DNA from: Branchiostoma lanceolatum
Lineage: Eukaryota
NCBI RefSeq assembly: GCF_035083965.1
Contig: NC_089722.1
Location: forward strand, 25,291,081-25,355,080
DNA: 64,000 bases
Direction of reading: 5' to 3'
Shown here piece by piece: positions 13,774 to 44,078 of this stretch. The translations under genes and the position numbers were made by a program. The first letter of the stretch is position 1, and each line of letters starts with the position of its first letter. Below the pieces are notes generated by a model. It ran no database searches, was not told the DNA's origin, and saw only the letters and a list, made by a program, of their open reading frames with translations.

Positions 13774-16700
13774 TCTATTGGTTTTCTCGGTTCCTCCTCT
13801 CCATCTCTTGCCTGTACTTGCGCGTTGAGATGACGTACTCGATGTAGCTCATCATCCCGTCGTTATCTGTATCATCTTTCTCTAGAATCATGTCCACCAT
13901 ACCTATCGATAAGATGGAACAAGGTGATGCTAAATTGTAATCTAGATGTAGATCTGCTGTTCTACTATATTACGTGATTGTGAAGCTACGTCTTGTTGCG
14001 CATGGTCTTTTTCTACGTCGACATGGTTAGGCATCAGCAGTTTTGGAGAGAAAAAATACAGGATTTGACAACTGAAATTTACTACTATTCTTACTACTTT
14101 CAAGTGACATGTTTTCTTCACTCGGTAAAATTAGTATTTTTGACAAAGTGCCCTTCCCCTTCTATTATTACAAATATGTCTTCCCTGGTTTGCTCCTAGA
14201 AGAGGAATACATTCGTCTCCAACAGTGTATAATAGAATGCTACTGTTATCTTAGTGGAATACATAACATGGCCGGGTTACCTGTAAAATACTCCATCCTT
14301 TCATCATAGTCAGGAGGGTGGTTATATTCAGACCTATGCTCCATGGCGGCCATGATCTCCAGTCCGTCCAACTTCAGGTTTTTGTCGCTGTCTTGGGACC
14401 TGATGAGAGGACAAAGTTCAGACTTATGCTTAGTAAGCTTTTATAATTACACTAGCAATGTGTGTGACTACTCTGCACTTGCTTTTGTAAGGCTGTGAAC
14501 CGGTGATGGGTCTCATTTCCCAAACGGATGCTTTATTGCTAATATCATAATAATACACTAAACGATGTAGTTATTTGACTTATCTTTCAAACGGCGTCTG
14601 TATAGGAAACGTAATATCATCTAAAGTGTACCATTTCAGTCATGAATGATTAATAAGTGAATATTCAATGAATCATGGGTGATTGGACAAACTTGTAGAC
14701 AAGAAATATGCGCATCTCACAAATAACGAGTTATTCACATGTATCATGTCATCTAAAAACTACGATACAATTGAAAACTATGTGAATTTGCCTTTGTGGG
14801 CTAATGTAAAGTTGGCGGTCTAACAAGTCCTTTTTTCGGTTCGATAACAAGGCTGCACGGCGATGGGTCAAAACTAGAGTCGATGTCATTGCCATGACGG
14901 CGTTTGGATTTCGACCGCGATTTAGCTGTCGTTAACGACAACACTTACCTTACATCGCAACCGATCATAACACTGCAACCGACATCGCTATCTTTACATA
15001 TCGCAGCAATCGAGTCTTTACATCGCAATCGAGTCTTTACATCACATTCGAGTCGCTACATCGCAACCGAGGCCTTGACACCGCAATCGAGTTCTTAAAT
15101 CGCAACCGAGTTTTAAAACAGCAATCGAGTATTTAAAACAACAGTCGAGTTTTTAAAACAGCAACCGAACCTTAAAAAAGCGGTCGAGGATTAACTCCAC
15201 GGGAGCCTAATCACATGTAGCACCTCGTTCACTTCACACCTTCTTAACACCTAATGGTTATAGGCCACCGGAGGGCGCAAATAATCGACTAGTTAGGCAT
15301 ATGGCATTGGTCTCCGTTGGTTCAAGGAGGTTTAATCCTCCTTGGTTGATTGGAAACATTATGCTGATTTGTTTATATATTTTTCTCATGAGATCTAATC
15401 TCATGAACGCAAACTTGAGTCAAACCACTCAAGGGACTGAGGGAAATGATTGCTGAGGACAGGAGATTGCAGAGGACCAAGGAGAGGACGGGCTATGTAA
15501 AAATGGATGAACTGTTTGTTATGTCTTGTGACTGGAGGTGGTTCCCTGTGCCAGGTGGTTGCCCGACAAGGTTTGACTGTACTAAATTTCCTAAACTTTC
15601 ACAGATTAACACTGAAATTGTTATAATCATCTGCATCTGGCACGCCCATGGATGATTGGAATAATTTGTGGGGCGTCATCAGAAACAACACACATCCACA
15701 TCTCACCTGCATGTTCTTAAGGAGTAAACATAAAATCCAATAATGGATAACACTGCAAATATAGATTTTCCGCAATAGTTATGCAAATTAAGTCATATTT
15801 GCATAATTTACTTCATTATGTACATTTCTGTCTAAGCTACCTGCATACTAAATATCATGGAAATCGGTTAATCCTTTGTTCAGTTATCCTCCTTGGAAGA
15901 TTCTGACTGCAGTTCCAGAGCAAGCCGCTAGGGGGTCCAAAAGTACAGCACTTCTTCCTTACATCACAATCTGCCACCAAAAAATAAAGACCACAGCACG
16001 TTCAAGTCAAATGATTTAAAAAAAAGAAAGTTGTGATGCAGTACCAAGCTCACATACCAGGGGGACCAAAAATCAACATTGACCTTCGTATTCCCAACAC
16101 CGACCCACATATCAAATATCATTACAATCCATCTTGACTAATGCTGACTACAAACATCCGGAAGGAAAGGAAGAAGGAAGCACAAACATACTATACCAAA
16201 CATACTATAGCAATCAGCACAAAGAGAGCGACGTGAGAGCGCGCAGCGAGCGCAGTGAGCACCGTTAGGGCCCTGTCACACTTGTGCGTATATTCAAGTG
16301 CGTATGAGTTGCGCATCAACATTTCTTTGGTTTAAGTAAAGTTTGAGGGAAAGAAGTTGTTTTTCACTTTGACCTACCGTTGTGCAGCCTGCTTATCGAA
16401 CCAAAGACATGACGTCATCGGCTGCAAACTAAAAAAACCTAAACCAAAAATATGTTAATACGCAATTCCTGCGGACTTGTATGTACGCAGAAGTGTGACA
16501 GGGGCTTTAAGGGCCCTGTCACATTTGTGCGTATATCATGGCCGTGTCAGTTGCGTATCAACATTTTTTTCATACGCAGGCGTGCGCACAATACGCACCT
16601 AATGCGTATCTCAATCGTTTTGTGAAAGTTTTACGTACGCAGGCACACGCAAGGTACGGCCCAGTACGCCTGATATTTTTGAAACTACCGAAAACTTTCG

Positions 16701-19700
16701 TGCGAACGCTGTTACGCAGCTCAGACGTTATAAATACGCAGTGCATACGTCCGACATCGGTCGAGTGCGGTACGAGCGCGCTTTGTGTTCGCGCTTTATA
16801 CGCGGTAGTACGCTCTCTTGCGGCACGATCTCTGCGCAGCGTACACATAGCGTACTTGCAGCGCAGATACAACGCATGATGATCGAACGTATAGCGAATA
16901 ATAATATACGTCACGAATTAGTGCCGTTCGTCCTGCGATCGGGCAGCGCATTGTACGTATCAGTGGCGTATGACAAACGCAGAGATAACGAACGGATAGC
17001 GTACATATAGTACTCGACGAACATCCGGGGTACATTCCAGATTGGGTAAATTATTGGTCGGGTATTCAATTTAGTTTAAGGGCAGAGAGAAAACAAACAC
17101 AACCAGCAAAGTGTACATAACTTTTGATTTAAATAATTATTGAAATGCCCCGCGCACATGCATCCCTGTTACATACACATAAAAGTTCTACTTGTCGTTA
17201 CTTGTGGAGGCGTCTTCTAATAACAGTTTTCGTAACTACTGATATCGACGCAACCAAATTCACAGGGTAAATAATGGCTCTAAATGTCATGGAGTGTTCC
17301 AAAAGTAAAATTGGTTTCCCTGTTACACATATACAAACGGTCCTACTTGTCATCAGTTGTGGAGGCGTCTTCCCATAACAGTTTAAGTAAACACTAATAT
17401 CAATGCAACCAAATACGTTCATAATTCGATTAGCATCAGTGGGAAGTGCGTCAGGCATGCGGTCGGCAGACGTTGTGTACGTCCGGAATACGCTCAACAT
17501 ACACACCTGATACGCAGCTATTCGCTGCAAGGATAACAGTATTGCGCACTTCATATGCAAATCATACGTGTCTCATATGCTGAATTCGTTACTCATGCGC
17601 TATATGAGCGCCGCGCATAACTCAAGAAATTTGATATTTTGAGCGTACAACTGCGTATCGTCAAAATTTCATACGGAGCTCACGCGGAATTGCTTATACG
17701 CACAAGTGTGACAGGGATTTAGGCCTCAGCTTGAGCGCGACGATAGCGCCGACAAGTAGAATGGGGGCATTAAAGTCATACATAAGACCAGAGGAGAGTG
17801 TTCTGGTTCGGCTGATGGCATTTTTCTGAATCCAAGATCGTATATTTGTATTGGTATTTACCGCCCACCAAATACTGACATCAGCAGAGAACTCAATAAA
17901 TGTATGAAGGAATCCATGAGCACTATCAATAGCACCTCGTTACATTACCGGTGATTTTGATATTAATCCACTCAGCAACACAAACCAACATACCACCGAC
18001 CATGTTAACGATATGTTTTCATATGGCTTCTATCCACTTATATCTAATTCCACGAGAATAATACTCATTTTCACATATTAAAGAATAAAAAGACCGGTGG
18101 AATAAATCGCTTGGTTGTGTAAGAATAGTCTTTTTATTCATTAATATATGCAACTGAGTATTTGTAAGTTGAAAGAGCCAGTCATCCTCCATAGCCCAGA
18201 AACATGAAACTATTCCACAATTCCAAAACAGGTGGATGGCTGTCTCTTCTTCCGCTAGAGTTTTATAGGCCCCATGTGGATAGTGCTTTAGTAGTAACTG
18301 TTCCAAATGTGAAAAGCAGCTCATATTGAAAAATTCTAGTATGGAAAGTTCATAAGGTAAGCTGTAATGTTGTTTCCAAAGTAAAGTTGTATTGAAGCGT
18401 TCTTCCCAAGAATGTTGTATTTTGTTAGGATTCACACAGCTTTGCTTTTTTCATAAAAAGATTTACAAATATTTCTATACTTTTTTTTCTGAATTCCAAG
18501 TCCTGTCCCTAAGTCGGCGTACAAACCCATAAATCTGGGGATGCCTGCCTTAAAAACGATTTCCAATAGACTGAATTCGTAGAAATTAACTGGCTATATT
18601 GAAGTTCTGGACGGACATATACAAATTTTGAGGTGAAGTTCGCATAAGTAAGAAATCCATTTTCTGAATCCAAAATATCATTCAGAAATCAAACTCCTCC
18701 CGTATCAAAAGCTGTCAAAAATAATGGTCTTTTATTCTAAAATGTTTCTTATTTCAAAAGTTGAAATTTCTTCTCCTAAAACAAACAAGTATGGGGAAAG
18801 AAGGCAACCCCAGGTATGTCCGAAGACCGTGGATTGCAATTCATCAATAAAGCGATAAACTCCACGGCCATTCCGGGACGATTTAGAGATGACCCACTCA
18901 ACGGCAATACCGTCACTAATAGCGGCGATTCGCCGTGGAATTCATCTATTTAGTGATGAACTCCACGGACATTCCGAGACGATTTAGTGATGAACTCAAT
19001 GGCAATGCCGTCACTAATAGCGGCGATTCGCCGTGGAATTCATCGATTAAGCAATGAACTTCACGGCCATTCCGAGACGATTCAGTGATGAACTCAACGG
19101 CAATACCGTCACTAATAGCGGCGATTCGCCGTGGAATTCATCTATTCAGTGATGAACTCCACGGACATTCCGAGACGATTTAGTGATGAACTCAACGGCA
19201 ATGCCGTCACTAATAGCGGCGATTCGCCGTGGAATTCATCTATTTAGTGATAAACTCCACGGTCATTCCGAGACGATTTAGTGAGGAACTCAACGGCAAT
19301 GCCGTCACTAATAGCGGCGATTCGCCGTGGAATTCATCTATTTAGTGATGAACTCCACGGTCATTCCGAGACGATTTAGTGATGAACTCAACGGCAATGC
19401 CGTCACTAATAGCGGCGATTTGCTTGAGTGTGGCATCACTATGTATTGTCTTTTTTGATGTTGGAATAAGAAAAACGTGGAATTCATCGATTTAGTGAGG
19501 AACTCAACGACTATGCCGAGGCGATTCATAATTCATCGATTTAGTGATGAACTCCACGGCCATGCAGAGACAATTTAGAGATGAACTCAAAATTATGAAC
19601 CCCACGGTCGCAGGAATCGTAATGAGATATACGGCCGCGGGAATTACTCTTACCAATTTGATAGCGTCCGACTTTGGAACCACGGAGCACTGGCCGGCCA

Positions 19701-20477
19701 TGCCTCATATTTCCGGCGCGATTTCTATATTATGACAATTGGGAGGGTACGTTGCGAGTACGTCACCTTCGCTGAAAAAAACGCATTTCAACTGGTAGGT
19801 GGTTACATTTGGAGTTCGTTTGTTTGCTATGTGCATAATGTAACATTTTTTCGGGATCAAACTACATGAGCCATTTGCTTTGCCATTCCCCGAGGGCGTT
19901 CAGATCTCCTTGCAGAAGTTGTGAATCATTCGGGCTTGTGCGTCAGTGTGCCGGTTGAAATGGCGATTTTTGTTTTAGACTTTTAAAAAAAAACGCAAGT
20001 GGCAAAATGCCGCGAGCTCACCGCGAGCTTGCCGGGAGCTCACCACGCTGTTTGTTGTGTAAAAAGTGATATGTTAGTTTCAAATTTATACATATATTCG
20101 TATATTCTATAATATGTTACCTTTATTGCACCTAGTGTCATAAGTGAACATCCTTAATTATCGCCTCAAATCCATTTTTGATGCATTTCACTAATTGTAC
20201 ATTGTATTTTGATAAATTGACAACACTGCGATTTCCAATGAATTGAAATCACTATCATCATCAAACTACATTCGGTCCATCCCCCTAGCTATTGATCTGT
20301 TTGCCAGTTTGGTTAAACCTATCTTAGTGTATTGTAGTGAACTTACTGGAATAGATGCAGAGATCTAACTTTCAGTGGGATGACGCAATGTCCCAATGAA
20401 CACATCAGAACATCTAGATCTACAGCTACAATCCCCAACTTGATATCTAAATGTTGATGAACTCCATAGTTACGGCA

Positions 20478-20542
<65 letters not shown>

Positions 20543-23500
20543 CATCTATGTATCTATCTATCTATCTATCTATCTATCTGTCTATCTATCTATCTATTTT
20601 TTTCATTAATTTTTAAAAATAATATATCTATATAGAATAACAAAATTGAGAATCAGCACACATTGTGCTGTGGCTTCGCGGTTCCCGGATTTGTCTCGTT
20701 GACGTTGTGCCCCTGGGAGAGGCACATTACTGGACATTTTTCTCACTTCACTCATCAGGTGAAAACGAGTACCTAGCTTCGGTTAGGGACGTCACTCTGA
20801 TAGGACGTTAAATGGAGGTCCCATGTTTGAGGAGATCCTGACCTCCCGATGTAGACACCATTATAGACGTTATTTATCTTTTTAATCATTATATACGAAA
20901 TCAGGTCCGTCTTTTACATGATTAATGAGGAAAAGTTGAAATTCCCTTTCAATGTGCTATTTTTGGGATGACGACCAATATACGAGGACACATATGGACA
21001 GTGACAGGCTTTGGGTCAACATGTGGGCAGTGCTTTTCACAATGTCAATGGCGCTTTAAGGCATATGAACTGGGAACTGTGACATAGAGAGGAAAACCGA
21101 TTGATAAATCGATTATGTAAATACGGACATGATTTGTTTAATAAGTTTTGTACTTCAATCATGTACTTTTGACAAGTCTCCATGTTGTTCAGTTTTTCTG
21201 TGTCATATGGTTTTGTCATTACAGTTGTATTTGCGTATTAGTTATTTTGATATCGATACTAGGCAAAGTGTTCTGTACTGTCCCGCTAAACAGGCTGAGA
21301 AGTGCAACAGACAGAAAACTCAGGGAGGAACAGGCTGTTTTCCGACCCAACAGGTCCTGCAGTGATCAAATATTCACATTACGAAACATTATTGAACAGA
21401 GTCTTAAGTTCCAAAAACCAATATCCTTAAACTTTATTGACTTTAAAAAAGCATTCGATAGTATACACAGAGAATCAATACTGAGAATCAGTACTCAGAA
21501 TCAGTACTCAGAACATATGGTACACATAAAAGGTTCACAGACATCTTACGAGGGATCAAGTTGTTGTGTGAAGGTCGACTCAGCTATACTGACAGCTTTG
21601 ATATAGTCACTGCAGTAAGACGGGTGTGTTCTATCCCCTCTGTTGTTCATTATCACCATAGATTATGTTATGTGTAAAGCCATGGACAACCCAAACTTTG
21701 GCCTAGTCTGGAAAGGAAGTAGTCGTCTGACCGATCTTGACTTTGCAGACGACATTACCTTAACAGCCGAGTCCCATCAAATTCTCCAAGATATGACCAT
21801 CAACACAGAGACAAATTCAGCCAAAGTAGGTCTGAGAATTAGCGGCAACAAAACCAAAGCAATGCAGGTTGGAGAGCACCCCCCCCCCCCAAACACACAT
21901 CTTTCATACAAGTTAACACCATTCGGCGAAGCTATGGGATCGCTGAACTCTAGTTGTAGAATTGATTAGCCTTGCTCTAAATGATGTAATGATGATAATG
22001 TAATGACGATGATGTAATGATAATGATGATGTGCTTACTTGCTTACTTACTTATGTCGAGACCTTCCAGTCACGAGTCGAGATGGCAGCCCAAGTGTTTT
22101 GGTCCTTTATCGCCTGGAGCAAACTATCCACTTCAATGCCGGTGTCTTTCTTGAGAGTGTCTATAAAGGTTGCTGCGGGTCTTCCTGGCCTCCTTTTCTC
22201 ATGCTTGGGAATCCAGAGTACCAGGTCAGCTACTTCTTCCTTGCTCCTGAGGCAGTGTCCGTCGAACTTCAACCTCCTTGTCCTGATCTTATCGGTCAGC
22301 TTTGGTAGGCCAGCATACAAGTCTTTGTTGGTAATGTGTTGTGTCCAGTGGATGTTGAGCGTTGTTCTCAGAAGCCTCGTGTAACACCCATCCAACTGCT
22401 TTTCTAACTTGGAGGTAACTGTCCATGTAAAAGTAAATCAGTCATCCTCAATTGAGGTGAAGTGCAATGCTTTTTCAAGCAGCTAGTGGTAGTGCAATGC
22501 GGCTTCGCTGCGGCTCGCGTTTTTTGGCCAAGCACACCGGGTCACCCCTACTCTTCTCGATAAGTGTATTGGGTTCTTTTACGTGCAGAGGTTTGACGCT
22601 TGAGGCTTACTCCCGAAGCTCCCTCAGGAAGAGCCTCACTTTCAACTTGTGTGAGAGAGTTGATCTCCAAACCTTCTTCATCTTGTTACAAGCCTGCCAG
22701 GCTGCTGCTTTTCTTGCTGCCTTGTCCCTTGCTGTACTTTCCATTCTGGACTTTTACCTCCTCCAAGGCAGTACCATCGCTTGTCTTGAGGCAGTAAGGG
22801 GTTGGAATGTTAAAGGGCATAAACTTTGTTTTGCCAGCGTTCATGCAGAGACCAACCTTGCCCACTGAGCTCTCCACACACCCAAGCAGTTGCTGAGCTT
22901 GTTGAATTGCCTCTGATATTAACGCAATGTCATCAGCGAAATCCAAATCAGGAACTGTCTTCGGGCCAACTCTTCTGCTCCTCCTCCTTTCTATCTGTAG
23001 ACCTCCTCTCTACCGTCAATATCCGTCCTCAGTGCATAGTCTGTATCTGAATCTGTATCTATATAGCCGGTACCGCCATTAGGCGCAACACACCAGCTTC
23101 GCAGGCACGCGGCGCGACAGCAGCTGGTTATGTTATACCGAACGGTCTGTTACACCTAGTCTTTGCATATCTGACTGCAACCGTTCCTTAAAGCTACTTA
23201 GTGAAGATGCTCCTACAGTACTTGATGACAACGAGTTCCATTCTACTATGGTTCTCGGAAAATGCGAATTTTTGAACACATCAATCCTTGGCTGATAACT
23301 CTGGTACTTAAAAGCATGGCGATTTCTAGTCCTCTTCTGAGCTGGCATTAGATACTTATCAGTCTGTACGTCTACAGGTTTATTAGTCATTTTGTACATC
23401 ATGCAAAGTCTGGACGTTGTTCTTCTGTATTCAAGGGACATCCATTGCAGATCAACAACAATCACAAACAGCCTGATATGGAGCTAGTGTGTCCCTGTAG

Positions 23501-29500: not shown

Positions 29501-32500
29501 AGTAAAGGAATATTCTACTTAGCAGAAGAAATAATTCCAACTAACACAGGCAAGCATTGGTGGAGGGGTCCCTCAGTCCCTGGGCTTGGGGTAGGTACTA
29601 ACACAGGCAAGCATTGGTGGAGGGGTCCCTCAGTCCCTGGGCTTGGGGTTAAGGTACTAACACAGGCAAGCATTTGTGGGTGGAGGGGTCCCTCTGTCCC
29701 TGTGCTTGGGGTACTGGTACTAACACAGGCAAGCATTGGCGCTGATGCTTAAACTAACGGCACATATGACGGTGATATCACATGTATGGAATGTTTTCCT
29801 CATATTTTCCAGATGTCTCAAAGATTCAATATTTGCCAACCCATCTTGTTTTACTATAGATACAGAGAGGAGAGGCAGCCTGCAGCGCGGCCCTGCAGTT
29901 ATTGTCCAAATCCACCAGGCGGACATCATCTCCGGTGATGGGGATGGACGACTTGACACACCTGTGGTAGCAGCTGCAACAGTATGTAATGAAATTTGGG
30001 TGAAGGAGATAACTAACATTATACAAATGTATACATTTTGGAAATGAGGAGCTTTTCTGCATGATAACATGCTATTATTCCTTAGTGGAACATGATAGGA
30101 ATAGAAGCTAAAGAAATAAACAAAATTGTCTACCTTCCTACGTTACTAGACCAGAGGCTGGCCCCTTGCTTCTCTCTGTCTGGTTTCTACAAGTTACATG
30201 GTTCATAATAGTAAGCCATAGCGTCTGCAGCGGGTAAGCTTAATCCTGTGTCTTTTACAATCTGGTCTAGAAGTTTAGATTTGTCCTTTTCCTTACATTT
30301 ATCTAGCATTTACATTGCATTCTAGAGGAAAAGCAGTGGAGCCACTCCAAAAGAAGAGACTGCTAGCTTCCCTATCAACAGAAGGGATACCAACATGGGA
30401 AATTCTCAAATGCAGCAACTCAGCATTTTCCTGACACAAGACTGGGCCAAAGAACTTGGCATTCCTTAAGTTAAGTGACACTTTTCCCTCAATGAACCCC
30501 TTTCTCAGGACTTTTTATCATTTGTAATTAACATAAAACTACTGTAATTTTTGTTTCTTTCACTGTTACTTTATGTTCACTGTTATTATTGTCACCTCTG
30601 TATTGTGAACTTATAATCATTATGGAAAACCTGTTGTGATTATTTATTATTCCTTCACACGTCCGTTCTGTGAAGTTAAAGTTCAGTGAAAATGTCCATT
30701 TTCCTTACACCCTGAAATTTTGCTACCGTGAAGATAAAGTGAATTACAGTAACTGCACTCTTACCATACTGAGCACTTCCAATTCACTGCACTCAAGCCA
30801 TTCTAAGCACCTGTAAGTCCCTACACTCCAGCAGTCTAAGCACATGTAAATCACATCAGCCACTCTAAGCACCTGTAAGTCACTCCAGCCATTGTAAGCA
30901 CCTGTAAGTCAGTCCAACCATTGTAAGCACCTGTAAGTCGATACAGCCACTCTAAGCACATGTAAGTCCCTCAGCCACTCTAAGCACTTGTACGTCACTG
31001 CAATCCAGTCACTTTAAGCACCAGTATCATTAATCTTTAGGGTGGTCCCTTCAGTTACTATGTAACTGATTTCCAAGGGAGCCCGTCCGGGTGAATGGTG
31101 TTAATAAACGTATGGCTGATACGAGACGGGGTTTCGCCAGGCTTCCATCTGGGTGATTTGTAGTGAATCACCAACTCCAGACAGAAGGATTTGGACCATC
31201 GCACACCAGGGCATGCCCCTACTCGTTTTACACCTGTCACTGCACTCCAGCCACTCTAAGCACCTGTAAGTCACTCCAGCCATTCTAAGCACCTGTAAGT
31301 CACTCCAGCCATTCTAAGCACCTGTAAGTCGCTCCAATCACTCTAAGCACCTGTAAGCCACACCAGTCACTCTAAGCACCTGTAAGTCACTCTAGCCATT
31401 CTAAGCACCTGTAAGTCGCTCCAATCACTCTAAGCACCTGTAAGCCACACCAGTCACTCTAAGCACCTGTAAGTCACTCTAGCCATTCCAAGCACTTGTA
31501 CCTCAATGTGCTCAGCCATTCTAAGCACCTCTGACTGCACCCAGGCCAATCTTAGCACCTCTTACTCACTTGTATCATCCTATGTAGTCTGGCCATTCTA
31601 ATCACTTTAGCTATTCAAACTCACTACACTCTGGCTGTTCTGATTACTTGGGTGTTTGGATGCATGATCGAATAAATGATTTGTTAGCCCCTGAGCAGAC
31701 GTAGGTGTTTGTATGCATGTTATGACAAATGATCTTTCCTCCAAGCAAACACAGGTGTTTGGCTTCTATTATTCTGATGAATGATGTTTTTACTCTGAGG
31801 AGTTACGGGTTTTTGGTTTCTAATGTTCTATTAGATAATTTTTCCCATCTTACCAGACACAGGTATTTAGTTTCTATTGTTCTTCTGATGAACAATATTT
31901 TTTTTCCTCCAAGCAGAAACATATGTTTGGCTACATGTAATGATGATATTGATTTTTTTATCCTCCAAGCAGATACGTTGGCTAATCTATTATTCTGATG
32001 AATGATATTTTCCCTCTCAGCAGACACAGGTATTATTCTGATGAATGAGTTTTTTTTCTCTTAGCAGACACAGGTGTTTGGCAGCATGTAATGATAAATA
32101 ATTTTATTCCTCCAAGCAGATACAGGCATTTGGCCTCTATTATTCTAATGAATCATTTATTTGCTTTCTGCTCCCGTGTGAAATCATGTGCACTTGCGCC
32201 AAATTGTGCTCTCGCAAGAGCAGATTCAAAATGGTGCCATAGTTTGGAAAGGAGTCTATCATATCAGTGCCAGATGTGAGGAAAAATGACAGAATATTTT
32301 TCAGACCTGGGCAGAACTGAGACTGGCCATGAGAAGATGGGATTTTCGTTGTCATACTTAAAGTACAACAAATGTAATGAAAGGAGATTACTAACATATG
32401 TATACATTTTGGAAATGAAGAGCTTGTCTGCATGATAACATGCTATTATTCCTTAGTGGAACATGATAGGAATAGAAACTAAAGAAATAAACAAAATTGT

Positions 32501-35500
32501 CTACCTTCCTACCATGCTTCCTACGTAACTAGACCAGAGGCTGACCCCTTGCTTCTCTCTGTCTGGTTTCTACAAGTTACATGGTTCATAATAGTAAGCC
32601 ATAGCGTCTGCAGCGGGTAAGCTTAATCCTGTGTCTTTTACAATCTGGTCTAGAAGTTTAGATTTGTCCTTTTCCTTACATTTATCTAGCATTTACATTG
32701 AATTCTAGAGGAAAAGCAGTGGAGCCACTCCAAGAGAAGAGACTGCTAGCTTCCCTATCAACAGAAGGGATACCAACATGGGAAATTCTCAAATGCAGCA
32801 ACTCAGCATTTTCCTGACACAAGACTGGGCCCAAGAACTTGGCATTCCTTAAGTTAAGTGACACTTTTCCCTCAATGAACCCCTTTCACAGGATTTACTG
32901 AAAACTGTTTATCATTTGTGATTTACTTCAAACTACTGTAATTCTTGTTTCTTTCACCGTAACTCTATGTTCCCTGTTATCACTGTCATCTCTGTATTGT
33001 GAACTTATCATCATCATGGAAAATCTGTTGTGATTATTGAAAATTTCTTCACACATCCGTTCTGTGAAGTTAAAGTTCAGTGAAAATGTCCATTTTCTTT
33101 ACAACGCCACTCCAGCAACTCTAAGCATCTATAAGTCACTTCACTCCAGCCTTTCAAAGCACCTGCAGCTGTAAGCCACTCCAGCCACTCTAAGCACCTG
33201 TAAGGCACTCCACTCCAGCCACTCTAAGCACCTGTCACTCCAGCCATTCTTAGAACATGTAAGTCACTGCACTAGCCACTCTAAGCACCTGTAAGCCACA
33301 CCAGTCACTCTAAGCACCTGTCACTCAAGTCATTCTAAGCACCTGTAAGTCATTCCAGCCACTCTAAGCACCTGTAAGTCACTCTAGCCATTCCAAGCAC
33401 TTGTACCTCAATGTGCTCAGCCATTCTAAGCACCTCTGACTGCACCCTGGCCAATCTTAGCACCTCTTACTCACTTGTATCATCCTATGTAGTCTGGCCA
33501 TTCTGATCACTTTTAGCTATTCAAACTCACTACACTCTGGCTGTTCTGATTACTTGGGTGTTTGGATGCATGATTGAATAAATGATTTGTTACCCCCTGA
33601 GCAGACGTAGGTGTTTGACTGCATTTTCTGACGAATAATATTTCCTCTGAGCAGACACAGGTATTTGGCTTCTATTATTCTGATGAATGATTTTTACTCT
33701 GAGCAGGTACATGTTTTTTTGTTTCTAATGTAGTAATTAATGATTTTTTCCTGTCTTAGCAGACACATACAGGTATTTAGTTTTTTATGTTCTGATGAAT
33801 GATTTTTTTCCTCCAAGGAAACATACATGTATGTTTGGCTGCATGTAATAATAATATCGATTTTTTTTATCCTCCAAGCAGATACTGGTATTTGGCTAAT
33901 CTATTTTTATTTTATTTTCCTCTGAGCAGACCTGGGTATTTGGCTGCATGTAATGATAAATCATTTTATTCCTCCAAGCAGATACAGGTATTTGGCTTCT
34001 ATTAATCTGATGAATGATTTTATTACTTTGAGCACACACAGGTATTTGCTTTCTGTTCTATTGATGAATGATTTTTTTCTCTGAGCAGACACATGTTTGG
34101 CTGCATGTAATGATACATTATTTTATTCCTCCAAGTAGATACAGGTATTTGGCTTCTATTATTCTGAAGAATGATTTTTTTATTTGAACGGACACAGGTA
34201 TTTGCTTTCTGTTCTACTGATGAATGATTTCATTCCTCCAAGCAAATACTAGTACAGGCTTCTATTATTCTGATGAATGATTTTTTCCTCTGAGCAGACA
34301 CAGATGTTTGGCTGCATATAATGATAAATGATTTTTTCCCTCCATGCAGATACAGGTATTTGTCTAATCTATTGTTCTTAGACTCATAAATTATTATTTT
34401 TTTCTTAGCAGACACAGGTATTTGGCTTCTATTATTCTGATGATGACTTTTTCCCTCTCATCAGACACAGGTGTTTGGCTTCTATTTTTCTGATGAATGA
34501 TTTTTTCCTCTTAGCAGACACAGGTGTTTGGCTTCTATTTTTCTGATGAATCATTTTTTCCTCTTAGCAGACACAGGTGTTTGGCTTCTATTATTCTGAT
34601 GAATCATTTTTTTCCTCTTAGCAGACACAGGTGTTTGGCTTCTATTATTCTGATGACTCATTTTTTCCCTCTCATCAGACAAAGGTGTTTGGCTTCTATT
34701 ATTCTGATGAATGATTTTTTCCTCTTAGCAGACACAGGTGTTTGGCTTCTATTATTCTGATGAATCATTTTTTTTCCTCTCACCAGATACAGGTATTTGG
34801 CTTCTATTATTCTGATGATGATATTTTTCCCTCTCAGCAGACACAGGTGTTTAGCTTCTATTATTCTGATGAATGTTTTTTTTTTCCTCTTAGCAGACAC
34901 AGGTGTTTGCCTTCTATTATTCTGATGAATGATTTTTTTCCTCTCAGCAGATACATGTGTTTGGCTTCTATTATTGTGATGAATGATTTTTTCCTCTTAG
35001 CAGACACAGGTGTTTGGCTTCTACTATTCTGATGAATCATTTTTTTCCTCTCAGCAGATACAGGTGTTTGGCTTCTATTATTCTGATGATGATATTTTTC
35101 CCTCTCAGCAGACACAGGTGTTTGGCTTCTATTATTCTGATGAATGTTTTTTTTTTCCTCTTAGCAGACACAGGTGTTTGCCTTCTATTATTCTGATGAA
35201 TGATTTTTTTCCTCTCAGCAGATACAGGTATTTGGCTTCTATTATTGTGATGAATGATTTTTTCCTCTTAGCAGACACAGGTGTTTGGCTTCTACTATTC
35301 TGATGAATCATTTTTTTTTCTCTCAGCAGATACAGGTGTTTGGCTTCTATTATTCTGATGAATGACTTTTTCCCTCTCAGCAGACACAGGTGTTTGGCTT
35401 CTATTATTCTGATGAATGATTTTTTTCCCTCTCAGCAGATACATGTGTTTGGCTTCTATTATTCTGATAAAATGATTTTTTTCCTCTTAGCAGATACAGG

Positions 35501-38500
35501 TGTTTGGCTTCTATTATTCTGATGAATGATTCTTTCCCTCTTAGCAGACATGGGTATTTTATTTCTGTTCTACTGATGAATGATTTTTTTCCTCTGAGCA
35601 GACACACCCTCACACACGTGTTTGGCTGCATGTGCTGATAAAGGATTTTTTTTCCTATAGCAGACACATGTGTTTGGCTTCTATTATTCTTTTGAATGTT
35701 TTTTTTCCTCTGAGCAGTAACCGGTTTTTGGTTTATATTGTCCTAATTAATGATTTCCCCCCCCCCTCCAAGAATACACGGGTATTTGGCTTCTATTGTT
35801 TTGATGAATGGTTTTTCCCATCTCAGCAGGTACAAGCGAATTGCACATTCTAATGAATAACTTTCTGTCAACTGTGCAGATTCTCTGGTTCTTTTGCTAA
35901 TGAACATTTTTTTTTGCCAGCCAAACGACATAAGGGGACAGTGACACAAGGATAGATGGTTGGTGTACACCCTTTCTCATCGGACATTAAGGTCTCATTC
36001 CTGTATTACTCCGAGTGGGTACCCTAAAAGAATATGTACCCCAAAATATTAACGACTGCATGAACGTGTGTTTAGATTGGTGGGAAAATTCCCTTTTAGC
36101 CACCCCAACTGATCTCAAGCATCAAACTGATAAAAGCTTGTTTGTAACTGAAGAAATTAGCAGGTAAAGTTTGGCAGCCATGCGCGATGTCGGACGTCCA
36201 CAGCCAGGCATTGTCGGGGATGCGGTCGTGCGCTTTCAGCTGGAAAGTGCCTTTTGGGGGGTGTACTAGTAGCTAAGTGCAGTGTGTAATTGCTATAAAA
36301 AGAGATTGTATGTAGTGAAACTGTTGCCAATTTTATTACATGATGTAGGGTACATGTGCTCAACATAGAATGAATGACCTTGGTGCATTTTCTATAGCTT
36401 CATTACGAACGCGCCCATATGTAAAACATGTTTTATAGCTATGGGGCGAAAAAACTCATGAATGAGACCTTGATAATGTGTTCATGTGTCTTTGAACAGG
36501 GTGAACCACCAACAAGGAGAGCGTTCATCGTTGTCAGGCTTGGAGAGGATATTGACAGCATCAGGTAATACTGCTGAAGGCATGGTTTGTATTTAGAAGC
36601 ACACCATCCACGCAAGACTTACCAGTTTGTTCAGATCAATGGGTTAATGCACCTTTCGTAAAGCATGTTCCACAATTGTTTGGGAGTACAGTACAGTATT
36701 GAATGTGAACTTGATAGATTGACAACTGAACGAAGAATACATGTGTACATGTGTATAATTCTGTATTATTGTTGAATTTCTTGTGTGTAGGACATGTGAA
36801 GAAGAAGAGGAGCCATGGCAGAGACAGCAGCTCAGATGTCAGCAGTCTGTCCAGTGTAGGTAACTTACTAACCAGTGTTCTCGCCAGGCCTTTTCAGCAT
36901 AGGGGCCCCCTATGCTGTGATTTGGACCCCCTATGCTGTGATCTGGACCCCTATGCTGTGTTTCAACCAGCATAGGGGTGTTTCTTTCTGGGACAAACCT
37001 TGTGACCCTTCATAAATCTTATAAAAAGTTCATATTTGGCTTTAGAATGAGGCTGTGACAGAGGAAAAAACTCTACTTCACAAAATTTATCCCTCAAAAT
37101 GCTTGTAATAATGTCTCATTGGGTCATGAATTTACAAATTTTCCGGGGGAACATGCCAGACTCCCTACTCTGGTCATGTCTTCAGCACTCCACGCATGAC
37201 TTGCACCGCTAAAGTTGGCCTTCTGTACCTGACCCCTATGCTGTGAAAAAATTCTGGTGAGAACACTGCTAACAGTAAATCTTCAAATTCCTGCAGTTGG
37301 CAAAATCATGACCCTGCGAATAATTGTGTTTTGTAATTGCAGTCTGCAGACCTATTTGAGCTTTTCATGAATAAATAAAGGTTCAAACTAACAAATAAAC
37401 TGAAAAATTGTTTGAGCCACGAACTACGAGCACTGCGGAAAGCTCCTTTACCCTCAAATCCCCTCAAAAATGAAATGAATTGTATATTTATAGTTTTGCC
37501 TGGTAGCCATCCTGGTGTACCTGTGCTGTACCGGTACTAAATCAGGTCAAGCCTGAGGATTACAGATCAGTGGAAGGCAACTTTGACAGATAGAATCACC
37601 ATGAATTACCGTGGCAGTGTACTGCAGTGTACTGTACTGTAGCACAGATTGAGCTTTAAATGTGCCTGAGTCAAATTTTCATCTTTATTTCAATACTGGA
37701 GTCATAGCTGACTATTGGTGAGGGTGATGGTCATTATAGATGCCATGTAATAGGCCCGTGTCTAGCAGAATTAAACATTATGTTGTTATCGGTTGTTTTT
37801 GTCCTTTAATCAACCATTACTTGAACATTTAATTTAGTAGTTCAGGGCCAGACCTGTACCTAAACCTGTGTACCTGTACCTAGAATTTGTTTAGGTACAC
37901 AGCTCTAACCAGGTGTTACATGTTATATCGTGAACAACCTTGGACAAACTTCAACTTGGCGACTTGACTTGAATTAAAAATTACATTTTCAATGTGTTTC
38001 TGGATACTTGTTTGTCAAATTATAGCCTTAGTAAATGTTTTTTCCACTTGCTTTGGGTCAAAATTAGACTTTCATCTTAGTCAAACATCCCATTGATACC
38101 CATACTTTTAAAGACTTGAAAAAAGGGCCCTTCCAAAAATGCGCTCTTAGGATATCTAGTCTGATGTTGAAAATAATGTTTATAGTGTTTGTGTGAATAT
38201 TTATTCATCAATTTCCACCCTTTAACAACTTAAGTCTTCTATTGCCTTGGCCCAAAAACTGACCTGGAACTTCAGCAATTATCCCATAAGAACCAGTACT
38301 TAAGGGATGATTCCCATCATACATCACACCCCATGGGTCTGCATGAAGGGGCACTACTCAATTCCTGGATTATAAATGGTTCATTTATTTGTTCATCTGT
38401 AAATAATTTTTACCAACTTGGTTGATTTTGTATTTATAAAGATGTGGTCTATTACAAATCACACCTGCTTCTGTTTTTTTCTGGGGTTGCCTATATGCAT

Positions 38501-41500
38501 GTATACATGCATCTGTCTGTACTGTATCTATAGCTGATGCCCAGCATGTACCTGCGAAGCTGGTGTGTTACGCTTACGAGTGGTTATACTGACTGTACAG
38601 ATACAGATACGGAACTGAGTAGTATCTTGATCAACATGCAAATTAAGATTTCTGATTCTAGATTCATAAGAAATTAATCCTTTTTTAAAGCACATTCATT
38701 TATGTATTTTACGCTTGTGTTTGCAGTGTCAGTGGTATGAAGGACCTAAGCTGAGGGATTTCCTGTTGGGATGTGAGCCTGAGAAGACTACTCTTCAAGC
38801 AGAGGTTGTAAGGGAGATCATGACTTAACTCAAGACTACTCTCCAAGTAGAGGTTGGAGGGGGGGAAATGCTATATTCTCCTGTTTACAGGTTCCAATCA
38901 CAAGAAGGTATAATCAGGCCTTTAGTTGAAAACCAAAGGAGACCAACTGCAGATTGAAAGTCTATCAACTACCAATCTAATCCAGATTTTTGAAGGAGTT
39001 GAGAAGAGTGCTGCCAGTAATGTAGTTACACTTTTAGCATGACACAAATGTGAAGCTTGAAGTCTAAATTTAATGAGATAAGATTAAGCGACAGATCTGT
39101 ATTTTATGTGGAAGATTCTAATGGAACACATAATTCACTACAAGCTGATAGTTTTGTTTATTAATCCAATCACAAGATCATTTTCCAGTGTCTGATGTTC
39201 ATATGACACACCAATTCCTCTAATCTGTGCCCATCAAGGCTTTAAAATGAATGGGTTCAGAAGCTTTATGACAGGATTTGCCAAACATTCAGAAAAATTA
39301 TAAATCAATCACTGCTGAACATTGGTGCACAAACACAAAGACATGTACTACAGAAATATAGAAAAGGCTCAAAAGTACCTCATAAAGCAATCTCTGGCAC
39401 AACTCTCACGTACTCTATCATCAAAGTGTTTGTATATTAGGACACAACAATTTGTTGTTTTTTCCTTCAAAAATTTGCTCACTCCATTGCTTTTCAATTG
39501 CATATTGTCCTTGTCTTCCTAGTTTCTACAGTTTCCCAAAATGTGTTGTCCATAGAAATGATATATTTGATGTGGTCGTAAATGGGTCTATCAAACTTTG
39601 ATTTATGGATTTTTGATTTTGACGCACCAGATTTTATTTGTACCCATTGTATGTTGTCCGCTTCCGTTCTACTGCCAAGCTGTAACACGTATTGTGATTA
39701 TTGCCTGTGCATATATTATACTGGGCCCCAATGGAAATCAGGTATCCTAGCTGTTTGGGCTACCCAGGAGTCTCAAGATGAAATAAATAAATAAATAAAT
39801 AAATAAACTGTTTTCTTATTTTGTCTTACCAGTTTCTCCCAGTTGTATGTCCGTTTAACTTTGTTTTCCTAAATAGTCTAAGAACAAAGAAATTAAATCA
39901 GTAAGACTGCAATCAGTTTTGTATAGTTATGGTTAATGCGTGGAAACAAGTGATGCGTTGTTTATCCCTACAGAGGTTATGAAATATACAGTATGTATGT
40001 GTATGTATGTGCTTCAAAGATTTGTATGTCATCTGACGTGCTTTGTATTTATTGAAGGGTCTATTTCTGATTGAATGAGTCTCTTGCTGCATTTCCTTGA
40101 TTCTCACTTTAGTAACTAGATACGGGCAAACATACATCAAAGCTTGGGATAGACAACGGTTAGTCGTTTTAAGTTGTATAAATACAAATGCCCTTCCCCC
40201 TCTCGGCCCGATAGGTTGATATTCAAGGTGACCTAAGTCAGGTCTAGTAGACACGACACGTCCAGTGTATCATTGGTATCAATACACATCTCTGTATGTA
40301 GGTGTGAAAGAGGTCCCCGTTGAGTTAATCCTCTACGCAGTTTAAGATAAGGAGTTAATCCTCGCAGGTTAAAAGCCCGACGCAGTGTAAAGCCCCAACG
40401 AAGTTTCAGTTCCGACGCAGGTTAAGTTCCGACGTACGTATTTTAAGAGTTCATCCATGTTTATATAGTTAACCCCATCCTGTCCCCTCCTAACTTAAGT
40501 CCTTTGAGTGGTTGCGGAATCCAGGTTTGACTCTACTTTGCGTTCGTAAATTATAACATTAAAAAAGGCTAATGTGTCCAATTAACGGAGATGTGCCTAA
40601 CTATAGTCGATTATTTGCGCCCTCCGGTGGCCTATAACCATTAGGTGTTAAGAAGGTGTGAAGTGAACGAGGTGCTACATGTAATTAGGCTCCCGTGGAG
40701 TTAATCCTCGACCGTTTTTTTAAGGTTCGGTTGCTGTTTTAAAAACTCGACTGTTGTTTTAAATACTCGACTGCTGTTTTAAAACTCGATTGCGATTTAA
40801 GAACTCGATTGCGGTGTCAAGGCCTCGGTTGCGATGTAGCGACTCGAATGTGATGTAAGGACTCGATTGCGATGTAAAGACTCGATTGCTGCGATATGTA
40901 AAGATAGCGATGTCGGTTGCAGTGTTATGATCGGTTGCGATGTAAGGTAAGTGTTGTCGTTAACGACAGCTAAATCGCGGTCGAAATCCAAACGCCGTCA
41001 TGGCAATGACATCGACTCTAGTTTTGACGCATCGCCGTGCAGCCTTGTTATCGAACCGAAAAAAGGACTTGTTAGACCGCCAACTTTACATTAGCCAATT
41101 TGTGTACAAATCTTTCAAGAAGAGAACAGAGACTCTGTAGATTTAGATGGAATTATTCATTTTATTTTACTTCATGTTACCTAATGCATTTAGCCCATGT
41201 TGGGCATGAATATGCAATAAAGCTCATTGTCATTGTCATTGTATAAACCACTTTAGACGACTCACTTGAAGAAGTGCCACTCCAGTTCCTCCGGTGACAT
41301 CTGACTGATTTGTTCCTCTGTCAGCTCCTGGACGTGCTCCTTCAGGTGACTGGTGGAAAACGTTAAGATGAACTTTGAAGTCATTATACACAATTAAACA
41401 GGCAATGTTCGTTTTCACGATTTCATTCTCTCTAAATATCAATGTTGAATCAACTTGAGTAGATAACAGACCAAGCTGCTGTTGTTCACACGCTATGCAC

Positions 41501-42589: not shown

Positions 42590-44078
42590 CTAATTCCCCT
42601 GTTGTTTCATTTCCGCCTCTTTTTGTTTCCGCGCAGCTTCAGCCATGACTTCGCGCCTTTTCCTGGCGATGACGTATTCAATCCAGCTGATCATGCCGTC
42701 ATCGTCGGAGTCATCGTCCTCCAGGATCTTGTCCACCAAACCTACGCAGTAGAAACAAAAAAATTGGGACTACGATTTCCATTGAATGAGTGAAGAAAAT
42801 CTGTGGAAACACTGATTTACACAAGAGATGTCACAGAAAAAACTAGGCAGTGCATTTGCTGACCAGGGAAAAATCAGAAGTACATGTACAACATTGTAAG
42901 AGATTATGCTAGTTTAAGAGCCAGCCGTACTGCTTGTCAGGTAGTTCAAGTCATTCCCACATCATATGGTGTATGTATTGCCGTGCTCATCTCCGTTCTA
43001 TAGCCCTTGGGCCACACAGCTGCGAAAGCACTACTTCAGAGGGCTAGCCCCATAAGTGCTGTTTGTACCCATTAAGTACTCCATCATTTCGTTGTAGTCA
43101 GGAGGGAGGCCATAGTCGGTTGAATGTTCGATGGCGGCCATGATCTCCAGTCCGTCCAACTTCAAGTCCTTGTCTCCGTCGTGAGACCTGTGGTTAACGA
43201 CGAAAACAGAAGAACAAGTTTCCTGTAATTTGATCTAACCAGGCGTAGATCATCAACATCATCATCATCTGTACCCCCAAATAACCTCATTAGGGGCAAA
43301 GTAGGGGAGTTGAGGTCCCGAGCTAGGGTGGGCAGGCCTCCAGCCTGGCACGGAACGACTCAACGGTGGGAGCCGTCACAACCGTGCCAGGCAGGGCATT
43401 CCACTGGGACTATGATGCAAACTTGGCGTAAGTAATTCAAGTTTTTCTACAGCCTGCTCTTATTTTTGATTTATCAGAGGTTTCTTCAAAGGGATATACT
43501 CACTTGAAGAAGTGGAACTCCATTTCTTCGGGTGACATCTGGTTAATCTGTTCTTCCGTCAGCTCTTGGACGTGCTCCTTTAGGTGACTATAGAAAAATA
43601 TCACCGGATTATTCATGATCATTAGAAAAGCTCTCCTAAAACTTAGCTAGCTCTGTAACCATATGAAAAGTAAGTCGTCTGTATGGAGGGGCACACAGCT
43701 GTGTCCGTTCACACCATGGCTTCTCGTTCCGTTCTGTTGTAAATGAAAATTACAAAATACATAACGAAAACCTTTACGCCGTAGATATGTTAAAGTGTTA
43801 AAGATTCGTACATATCAAAATGATAGAATTGTCTTTGTATCCACAGTAAGAATTCAAAATTTGCAATAATGACTGTTTAGTTCCTTATGTGACGCTTCCC
43901 ACATTATTCCATATGGTTATCTGACCATAAAACCATAAAAAACCTACTGTTTATCCTGTGTCATTGCTGGATCCCGAAACCTATTGCTTGCAGTATCGCC
44001 GGTACCAGTGCATAATGCAATCGGCACAAGAAACAGAAAGGCACTGATGACCACCAGCAAACGACGTAAAAACTCCAT
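42590..44078 (-). CDS. MCFD2-like copy E (4 exons); its terminal exon lies just outside the 6.4-kb duplicated unit
   Basis: Exons are about 44078-43963 (MEFLRRLLVVISAFLFLVPIALCTGTGDTASNRFRDPAMTQDK, donor GTAGGT), 43588-43503 ([28 protein letters not shown]), 43186-43070 ([39 protein letters not shown]) and 42744-42590 (LVDKILEDDDSDDDGMISWIEYVIARKRREVMAEAARKQKEAEMKQQGN*). Confidence 0.75.

Follow-up and report, generated by a model that had tools for sequence, protein, structure and literature searches.

A 26-kb block bounded by long inverted repeats makes up nearly all of a giant intron in an amphioxus MCFD2-like gene

The 64-kb window analyzed here (the whole stretch of DNA, numbered from its first letter) comes from Branchiostoma (amphioxus) and contains a minus-strand MCFD2-like EF-hand gene, whose intron 2 is filled almost entirely by a block that begins and ends with two long, nearly identical inverted arms. 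This block is the excess length of the intron, which has most likely been enlarged by it about 80-fold from a normally ~0.3-kb size. Our leading, though tentative, reading is that 14799-41096 is a single insertion of a non-autonomous foldback-like or composite DNA transposon with long terminal inverted repeats (TIRs), which moved as a unit. The original prediction had offered three readings of the repeat pair, namely a TIR or foldback composite, the footprint of an inversion, and two independent insertions. We favor the first because the block coincides with the intron excess, its outer edges are sharp, and it is flanked by the direct repeat TTTGTG; the second found no support and the third is disfavored by the position of the arms.

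Host gene and intron

The gene reads on the minus strand from exon 1 (about 41756-41870) through the two exons bordering intron 2 (about 41266-41348 and 14281-14399) to its last exon (13778-13903). Intron 2 (14400-41265, minus strand) extends over 26,866 bp between a donor at 41265 and an acceptor at 14400, and the intronic setting initially proposed for the repeats holds, with the arms lying 399 and 169 nt inside its two boundaries. The block between the outer repeat edges covers 26,298 of the 26,866 intron bases (98%), with a remainder of 568 bp. In the syntenic and collinear ortholog of B. belcheri, the intron at the same position is ~333 bp long (L001 12996-13231 matches window positions 41495-41261, and L001 13565-13690 matches 14401-14276), and the same intron in four paralogs within the window measures about 0.17-1.7 kb. 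The ~333-bp intron of the ortholog, set beside a block amounting to 98% of 26.9 kb, bears out the early suggestion that a repeat-bounded structure accounts for the size of this intron. The comparison with B. belcheri is a distant one, the exons being 79-85% identical at the DNA level; because of this distance, no empty site is alignable in the B. belcheri intron and the insertion carries no date.

These measurements bear on the reading in which two members of a young, ~0.5-0.7-kb MITE-like family inserted independently, in opposite orientation, into an already-large intron and form a pair by chance. About 6.7% of amphioxus genomes consists of MITEs, which have propagated recently (PMC10013865), and nearby copies at 99% identity are therefore expected somewhere. 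However, landing 399 and 169 nt from opposite intron ends has a probability of about (568/26866)^2 = 4.5e-4, and the ortholog and paralogs point to an ancestral intron of about 0.2-1.7 kb rather than to one that was large beforehand. We consider a chance pairing of this kind improbable.

The inverted arms and their outer flanks

A repeat search of the 64-kb window recovered the arms as 14799-15291 and 40604-41096, each 493 nt long, 99% complementary and spaced 25,312 nt apart. Over these 493 nt they differ by six substitutions (98.8% identity, 1.2% divergence) and one 2-bp indel, and gapped blastn stretches them to 14799-15302 and 41096-40591 at 98.2% over 506 columns. The inverted pair is thus real, at 98-99% over 493-506 nt, although the coordinates first given for it (14881-15330 and 40560-41010) set its outer ends ~80 bp too far inward. 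The high-identity core of the left arm (14799-15302, plus strand) is 98.8% identical to the reverse complement of that of the right arm (40591-41096, minus strand). Both arms have a sharp outer edge, at 14799 and, in minus-strand reading, at 41096, and both start with GGCTAATGTAAAG. By self-comparison, the window holds these two copies of the arm and no others. Exact-pattern scans of metagenome and viral contigs returned no match, and a six-frame protein search found nothing.

From its outer end inward, each arm consists of a ~150-bp unique terminal domain starting with GGCTAATGT, ~12 tandem 19-bp subrepeats, a GAGGATTAACTC box, and a degenerate inner part. The left array (14945-15190, plus strand; ~12 subrepeats of 19-20 bp) has a consensus of about GCAATCGAGTCTTTACATC that grades into TTTAAAACAGCAAYCGAG, and its counterpart on the right occupies 40707-40950 on the minus strand, with motif matches up to 40941. 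The tandem ~20-bp subrepeats predicted for each arm were recovered both by TRF, as one array of period 19/38 per arm (14991-15188 and 40707-40889), and as a motif excess, with ATCGCAAYCGAG occurring 10 times, exclusively in the arms, against an expectation of 0.23. The spacing of the subrepeats equals about two helical turns. GAGGATTAACTC occurs four times against 0.24 expected, in both arms and at 40322 and 40352. The latter two boxes belong to a partial and diverged second module of arm sequence on the right (40295-40444, minus strand), which also comprises 17-bp subrepeats (TRF 40377-40434) and ..TTCACACCT.

At 15302/40591 the identity between the arms drops sharply, from 99% to some 70%, and weaker homology then continues inward to about 15516 and 40445. 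These degenerate extensions span 15303-15516 on the left (plus strand; about 65-75% identity with indels, including a 30-nt palindromic insertion at 15318-15348) and 40445-40590 on the right (minus strand). Besides the two outer ends, the 9-nt terminal motif GGCTAATGT has a single further occurrence, on the inner margin of the right arm. This inner copy (40567-40575) is a perfect inverted one that reads GGCTAATGT on the plus strand, and the right arm (40567-41096) is accordingly bounded by a perfect 9-nt GGCTAATGT/ACATTAGCC pair, whereas in the left arm the inner motif (about 15357-15365, ACATTATGC) is degenerate. If the arms are cut at GGCTAATGT...ACATTA(G/T)(C/G)C, they are 530-567 bp long and have their own 2-bp flanks, TG..TG and AA..AA, at a joint chance of about 0.005. 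These flanks point to separate insertions and count against insertion as a unit; like the perfect inverted repeat of the right arm, they are what independently inserted elements would be expected to possess. Yet the homology between the arms runs ~150 bp past the inner 9-nt motifs, resuming within 30 nt of both, and for this reason the supposed inner ends are probably not element ends. Moreover, young independent copies should be ~99% identical throughout, yet here identity collapses after 15302/40591.

For insertion as a unit, the same step from 99% to ~70% identity is a point against, as it needs an extra process, the candidates being arm-to-arm conversion and family-level conservation of the terminal module. 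It also resembles the edge of a conversion tract, and inverted repeats 25 kb apart are able to recombine and convert, both of which speak for the pair being the by-product of a rearrangement, be it a staggered-break inversion with duplicated breakpoints, ectopic recombination or conversion between a pair of old inverted copies, or an inverted duplication generated by repair. An origin of this type nonetheless has little probability in our estimate. The reciprocal inverted duplication that the staggered-break model predicts has no match in the self-comparison of the window, where no sequence just inside one arm is repeated just outside the other; the flanks on the outer side of the arms are not reverse-complementary to those on the inner side, unlike exchanged target-site duplications; and rearrangement alone provides no source for the 26 kb of extra intron DNA.

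At the outer edges (..TTTGTG on the left, AATTTG.. on the right) we find a candidate target-site duplication, TTTGTG, on both sides, the left copy (14793-14798) directly abutting its arm and the right copy (41099-41104) lying 2 nt (AA) beyond. A direct repeat of at least 6 bp with 2-nt slack has P = 0.0028 relative to random positions in the window, and with two independent insertions it would have to be a chance occurrence (P about 0.003). The 2-nt offset on one side is itself a point against insertion as a unit. The flanks can alternatively be read as a 4-bp duplication of TTTG, the termini then being T(G/T)GGCTAATG. If the block inserted as a unit, the expected pre-insertion junction would be ...GCC-TTTGTG-TACAAATC... 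(or its TTTG variant). None of the known superfamily signatures fits the flanks and termini cleanly.

A perfectly identical 6,388-bp tandem duplication (42767-49154 / 49156-55543) lies just 1.7 kb away, which is suspicious at a heterozygosity of 3-4% and could hint that the structure was produced by the assembly or by chimeric joining at a repeat in a highly heterozygous genome. For the block itself we regard this as very unlikely: the arms are 98.8% rather than 100% identical and their inner ends differ by indels; a misjoin at a solo repeat would put the right flank next to the arm's inner end rather than next to its outer terminus; 500-bp repeats are spanned by long reads; and there are no Ns in the window.

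Interior DNA and the route to the present block

The interior or passenger DNA (15517-40294) contains no intact genes and is pieced together from repeats that are unrelated to one another and lie in either orientation. Among these are two decayed, frameshifted LINE reverse-transcriptase fragments (21145-21966, plus strand, and 22054-23483, minus strand) and MITE-like elements (16262-16512 and 27306-27508). Tandem arrays are present at 18838-19420 (98-bp repeat), 30.7-33.5 kb (29-bp satellites), and 33.6-35.8 kb (54/107-bp satellite), along with an internal duplication of ~2.4 kb at 81-85% identity. When every stop-free segment of 45 aa or more across 14.4-41.3 kb was scanned with Pfam, RVT_1 fragments alone were recovered, with no transposase, polymerase, integrase, or capsid domains; therefore, the element would be non-autonomous. 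Judged by the 81-85% identity of its duplicates and its frameshifted reverse transcriptases, against 1.2% divergence between the arms, the interior looks far older than the arms, and this fits old DNA having been carried in as a block.

Polintons/Mavericks are self-synthesising transposons of 15-25 kb whose TIRs measure several hundred bp and whose target-site duplications are 6 bp long, a geometry fitted by the 26.3-kb size, the ~0.5-kb TIRs, and the possible 6-bp duplication. A decayed member of this group is nevertheless effectively refuted: no protein-primed polymerase B, integrase, protease, packaging ATPase, or capsid was detected by Pfam in segments of at least 45 aa, and an element so decayed would not keep TIRs at 99%.

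The main rival to insertion as a unit is a small foldback element grown by nesting or DNA capture. In this account, a small foldback-like element (two ~0.7-0.9-kb arms, 1.5-2 kb in total) inserted into the short intron with duplication of TTTGTG and was then inflated from its center, either through successive nested transposons or because the fragile palindrome center captured DNA once or a few times, with arm-to-arm gene conversion holding the outer 500 bp alike. Its geometry and flanking repeat would equal those of a unit insertion, and unit transposition over 26 kb is rare relative to nesting. The mosaic interior, with its MITEs and two opposed LINE fragments, is like a typical transposon nest; the gradient from 99% at the termini through ~70% inward to nothing corresponds to decay outward from the center combined with outer conversion; and later insertions would fall inside the first one with high probability (an estimated 0.4 or so overall for 10 events). 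However, conversion would have to keep the arms within 1.2% of each other over the time in which 25 kb was added to the interior, including 81-85% duplicates and frameshifted reverse transcriptases, and no boundaries or target-site duplications of nested events were resolved. We see such growth as a serious candidate, if on balance an unlikely one.

Under the preferred reading of a single composite insertion, mobility of the block, its movement as a unit, a transposase acting on it, and any effect on splicing are inferred. A transposase from an autonomous relative would, in trans, bind the terminal motif and the subrepeat arrays of both arms and synapse the two outer ends, and cut-and-paste would then move everything between them, comprising ~25 kb of old, gene-less passenger DNA. 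The block would have entered a ~0.3-0.6-kb intron of the MCFD2-like gene with duplication of a short target (TTTGTG or TTTG), bringing the intron to 26.9 kb. Speculatively, the transcribed arms might pair into a ~500-bp RNA duplex with the splice sites within about 570 nt, and this duplex may be why the gene tolerates the insertion. The arm divergence of 1.2% is lower than the allelic heterozygosity of 3.2-4.2% reported for amphioxus (PMC10013865). A bolder version of the single-insertion reading, which we offer as possible but doubtful, is that this is a giant 26-kb non-autonomous composite that is currently or was very recently active, its two foldback-type arms (~0.5-0.9 kb each) representing an undescribed amphioxus family and moving 25 kb of passenger DNA as a unit. 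Such an insertion would be young enough to be polymorphic (1.2% against 3-4% allelic diversity), and its arms would form an intron-bridging RNA duplex that allows splicing of the host gene to continue.

Relationship to known elements and significance

The block is ordinary transposon biology, though a large example. It displays features of foldback-like elements, with long TIRs, high arm identity, sharp outer ends, and subterminal tandem subrepeats. In Drosophila FB and Galileo (the latter of the P superfamily), TIRs of hundreds of bp consist partly of short tandem subrepeats, the arms of a given copy are highly identical, most copies are without coding capacity, and paired arms are able to transport large pieces of unrelated DNA and to give rise to rearrangements. 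The likeness of our block to these elements is one of organization (long TIRs with tandem subrepeats, near-identical arms, no coding capacity) rather than of compared sequences. The candidate duplication here is 6 (or 4) bp, in contrast to 9 bp for FB and 7 bp for Galileo, and the 25-kb interior is far above that of typical copies. A bacterial parallel is provided by Tn5 and Tn10, where inverted IS arms mobilise the intervening DNA via the outer ends, with inner ends that can be weaker. The amphioxus block likewise has an inner motif that is perfect in the right arm and degenerate in the left, but its arms encode no transposase, its setting is eukaryotic, and its mobility is putative.

Within amphioxus, the Bb-b-SDR consists of passenger DNA between two copies of the non-autonomous DNA transposon Zator-1, and has been reported from several genomic sites, inserted in an intron or 3' UTR with target-site duplications at its outer ends and carrying the gene copy tesDwb. 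The present block shares with it the genus, passenger DNA between paired, putatively non-autonomous elements, candidate outer-end duplications, and an intronic site, but is without a gene copy and without a 3-bp duplication at the arm ends. Zator-1 itself has 33-bp TIRs and a 3-bp TAA/TTA duplication, and the absence of the latter from the flanks (..TTTGTG and AATTTG..) speaks against Zator identity for the arms. KolobokP elements, known from B. floridae, B. lanceolatum, B. japonicum, and B. belcheri, possess ~450-660-bp terminal direct repeats with their own short inverted termini and GG..CC ends, and their solo repeats act as non-autonomous transposons (PMC9587614). The composite-like architecture and the RR..YY termini of the right arm, with its short TIRs (GGCTAATGT...ACATTAGCC), are a resemblance only. 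In contrast to the direct repeats of KolobokP, the arms here are inverted (530-567 bp if delimited by the motif), no 4-bp duplication adjoins GG/CC ends, and the interior lacks a transposase or His-Me nuclease. KolobokP was rejected on the orientation of the arms and on blastn with 12 Branchiostoma LTDR consensuses, which gave only 14-24-nt chance matches in the window and none in the arms.

Should the block prove to be only a nest or a chance pair, it would be a matter of routine repeat annotation. If it moved as a unit, a single transposon-mediated event would have turned a ~0.3-kb intron into a 27-kb one, and large DNA carried by paired small elements, as in the Zator-1-flanked sex-determining region, would be known from amphioxus a second time, with a bearing on the remodelling of introns and gene neighborhoods in a very polymorphic chordate genome. 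A giant active composite would further suggest that macro-transposition by paired small elements is recurrent in amphioxus. Because the inverted arms adjoin both splice sites, the locus also lends itself to asking, in a natural setting, whether duplexes that bridge an intron cushion giant insertions or instead provoke editing and the production of small RNAs.

Host gene and the size of its second intron

The host of the inverted repeat is an MCFD2-like EF-hand gene on the minus strand, whose four exons (about 41756-41870, about 41266-41348, 14281-14399 and 13778-13903) are all intact; the repeat lies inside intron 2 (14400-41265, minus strand; 26,866 bp). The 68-aa translation across the two flanking exons has a single protein match, the hypothetical protein Bbelb_149130 of Branchiostoma belcheri (90% identity), and a concatenated query of four paralogs retrieves MCFD2 proteins of insects and nematodes alone, all of them distant. 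The B. belcheri locus encoding Bbelb_149130, L001, is syntenic: it shares the window's neighbours, including a titin-like Ig/FN3 gene, and is collinear with the window between 61 and 12 kb. Exon DNA identities of 79-91% mark the window as coming from a Branchiostoma species other than B. belcheri. As L001 12996-13231 aligns with window 41495-41261 and L001 13565-13690 with window 14401-14276, the orthologous intron in B. belcheri is approximately 333 bp long; the equivalent introns of four paralogs in the window measure about 0.17, 0.29, 0.31 and 1.7 kb. The block, i.e., everything between the outer arm edges (14799-41096), spans 26,298 bp or 98% of the host intron, and the 399 + 169 = 568 bp outside it constitute a normal intron size for the MCFD2-like family. 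Essentially all of the extra intron DNA is bounded by the inverted repeat, as the original prediction had held in attributing the large intron to a repeat-bounded segment.

The host gene belongs to a minus-strand tandem cluster (7.3-55 kb) in which MCFD2-like EF-hand genes number at least six and have a common four-exon structure; a giant intron occurs in only one of them. The cluster adjoins a titin/twitchin-like Ig/FN3 gene (56.0-64.0 kb, plus strand), whose synteny with B. belcheri is conserved, and at 4940-5299, close to 5 kb, there is an ORF with collagen-like GPP repeats. B. belcheri has its own lineage-specific insertion of about 8 kb between the same two genes (L001 14213-22198 versus window 13764-13371), which includes a gene model of 395 aa lacking any Pfam match; thus, large lineage-specific insertions occur on both sides of the comparison. 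Two MCFD2-like paralogs lie in a perfect head-to-tail duplication (42767-49154 and 49156-55543; 100% over 6,388 bp with a 1-bp spacer), whereas only one unit is present at the syntenic locus of B. belcheri. In a species whose heterozygosity is 3-4%, such perfect identity points either to duplication in the very recent past or to an assembly artefact. Its adjacency could cast the repeat pair itself as an artefact of assembly; however, the arms are 98.8% identical and both outer termini face exons, making this highly improbable.

Arms, termini and flanks

A repeat search of the window recovers the arms as 14799-15291 and 40604-41096 (493 nt, 99% complementary, 25,312 nt apart), while gapped blastn aligns 14799-15302 with 41096-40591 at 98.2% over 506 columns; compared directly, the arms differ by 6 substitutions in 493 nt and one 2-bp indel. 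The inverted repeat exists, and a chance match is ruled out. The high-identity pair of the original prediction is thereby confirmed, but its outer ends were set about 80 bp too far inward; the ~20-bp tandem subrepeats it described correspond to period-19/38 arrays detected by TRF at 14991-15188 in the left arm and 40707-40889 in the right. ATCGCAAYCGAG occurs 10 times in the window, where 0.23 occurrences would be expected, and every one falls within an arm. The outer boundary is abrupt in both arms, each opening with GGCTAATGTAAAG next to unrelated flanking sequence. No third arm copy exists in the 64-kb window; further copies were also sought by exact pattern in metagenome contigs (two scans) and in viral contigs, with 0 matches, and a protein search with the six-frame translated arm as the query likewise gave none.

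The left flank ends in ...GCCTTTGTG and the right flank starts with AATTTGTGTAC... at the block's edges. A 6-bp direct repeat, TTTGTG, surrounds the block (14793-14798 and 41099-41104, the right copy being 2 nt off); a flanking repeat of at least 6 bp arises by chance with P = 0.0028 (200,000 random window position pairs, 2-nt slack). Alternatively, the flanks may be read as a 4-bp TTTG duplication with the termini T(G/T)GGCTAATG. Under a single insertion, the pre-insertion site would have been ...GAATTTGCC-TTTGTG-TACAAATCTTTC...; no empty site could be obtained for comparison from the B. belcheri intron because it is mostly microsatellite and not alignable to the window flanks.

The 9-nt terminal motif GGCTAATGT has three copies in the window, namely the two outer termini and 40567-40575 (plus strand), and the right arm (40567-41096) is therefore itself delimited by a perfect 9-nt inverted repeat. 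The left arm has a degenerate counterpart of this inner copy, ACATTATGC, at about 15357-15365; under independent insertions, the inner ends would be expected at the ACATTAGCC motif. A conflicting signal emerges here: cut at the inner motif, each arm acquires its own 2-bp flanks, TG..TG and AA..AA (joint chance ~0.005), as two independent insertions would leave, a reading also in keeping with how common young MITEs are in amphioxus. We give these flanks less weight because the arm homology extends past the inner motif. Inward of the 99% core, identity falls abruptly, but homology with indels runs to about 15516 and 40445 (Smith-Waterman score 48 versus 25 +/- 2 for shuffles); restricted to the region beyond the inner motif, the score is 43 versus 25 +/- 2.7, a value reached by 4 of 161 real-sequence controls, and that alignment begins at most 30 nt from both boundaries. 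This homology past the supposed inner ends, the non-uniform arm identity and the outer TTTGTG repeat all sit poorly with independent insertions, as do the arm positions, for by our own calculation two unrelated random insertions would span this much of the intron with a chance of (568/26866)^2, or about 4.5e-4. We accordingly regard independent insertions as improbable.

Several finer features accompany the arms. Exactly where their identity collapses, the left arm carries an inserted 30-nt near-perfect palindrome (CAAGGAGGTTT/AATCCTCCTTG, 15318-15348) with no counterpart in the right arm; it may have been left behind by repair or excision. Each arm has one GAGGATTAACTC box, and two more occur in a second, diverged partial arm module (40295-40444) with its own 17-bp subrepeats. 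A 45-nt arm module (..GGTTCGATAACAAGGCTGCACGGCGATGGGTC, 14827-14872) recurs as an inverted, 78%-identical copy (16368-16413) in the middle of a 250-bp palindromic MITE-like element (16262-16512; 76-nt TIRs) that is not otherwise related to the arm, and may be common to separate non-autonomous families.

Interior DNA and the possible origin of the block

The longest ORF in the interior, the DNA between the arms, is at most 152 aa. When every intron segment of 45 aa or more free of stop codons was scanned against Pfam, the only matches were reverse-transcriptase fragments (~21.1-22.0 kb, plus strand; ~22.7-23.0 kb, minus strand), with no transposase, polymerase B, integrase or capsid domains. 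A decayed Polinton would match in geometry only, and is rejected as the scanned segments of the intron hold no Polinton genes. Rfam at gathering thresholds and ARAGORN found no RNA family or tRNA in the whole window, ruling out a SINE head, ribozyme or similar origin.

Nested in the block is a further MITE-like element (27306-27508; 203 bp) whose 48-nt terminal inverted repeats are 94% identical, and the interior also contains a 98-bp tandem repeat, 29-bp and 54/107-bp satellites and a duplication of ~2.4 kb, now 81-85% identical. This higher-order duplication occupies 30003-35834 (30003-30999 versus 32381-33383 at 85%; 31236-32162 versus 33135-34078 at 81%), each unit being followed by the 29-bp and then the 54/107-bp satellite, with the second 54-bp array grown to ~2.2 kb. 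Two decayed LINE reverse-transcriptase fragments (21145-21966, plus; 22054-23483, minus) stand opposed, tail to tail, with more inverted repeat pairs around them (19969-20833 versus 24469-26195). Judged by their 1.2% divergence, the arms look far younger than the interior DNA; that value is itself lower than the amphioxus heterozygosity of 3.2-4.2% (PMC10013865).

The geometry, sharp termini, subrepeat-rich arms, flanking repeat and absence of genes make one long-TIR, foldback-like or composite non-autonomous DNA element the best supported reading, though unproven, based on one locus, one distant ortholog and paralogs inside the window. Given the greater apparent age of the interior relative to the arms, we tentatively favour, at somewhat less than an even chance, a single arrival of the entire 26 kb, mobilised in trans by machinery that would have acted on the two outer ends. 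In the main rival scenario, which we consider unlikely, the insertion was of a small foldback element, whose centre then expanded through nested insertions or captured DNA while conversion maintained the similarity of the outer 500 bp of the arms; the gradient of arm identity from the termini inward fits this well. A rearrangement could also generate an inverted repeat, but it would leave the source of the extra DNA unexplained, and we reject the staggered-break inversion model because the self-comparison lacks the reciprocal duplications it predicts; such an origin thus has little probability. Among the three readings in the original prediction, the one that invokes the long TIRs of a giant element or foldback composite therefore fares best, ahead of an inversion footprint and independent insertions.

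Relationship to known elements and possible consequences for the host gene

We take the block to work most like the foldback-type long-TIR elements FB and Galileo, and it also resembles composite transposons in this respect. The literature searched for amphioxus foldback elements and LanceleTn MITEs yielded nothing usable. A direct precedent within the genus is offered by Bb-b-SDR of B. belcheri, in which two Zator-1 elements (33-bp TIRs, 3-bp TAA duplications) enclose passenger DNA and which occupies several sites, an intron among them (PMC12905397); however, the Zator signature is absent from the block. KolobokP of Branchiostoma has terminal repeats of ~450-660 bp that terminate in GG..CC and have short inverted sequences of their own at the ends (PMC9587614), but these repeats are direct and the block's arms inverted. 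As 12 Branchiostoma LTDR consensus sequences also show no similarity to the arms by blastn, membership of KolobokP is rejected on both orientation and sequence. No superfamily is assignable from the 6- or 4-bp duplication and the GGCTAATGT terminus alone.

When cofolded, the two arms are predicted to form 498 intermolecular base pairs at -974 kcal/mol, versus -256 kcal/mol for the arms folded separately; the distance to the shared stem would then be 169 nt for the donor and 399 nt for the acceptor. Such a duplex on the pre-mRNA could ease the splicing out of the giant intron, and the arms could equally be substrates for editing or small-RNA pathways. The block is probably a new family member in a known kind of transposon-driven intron expansion.
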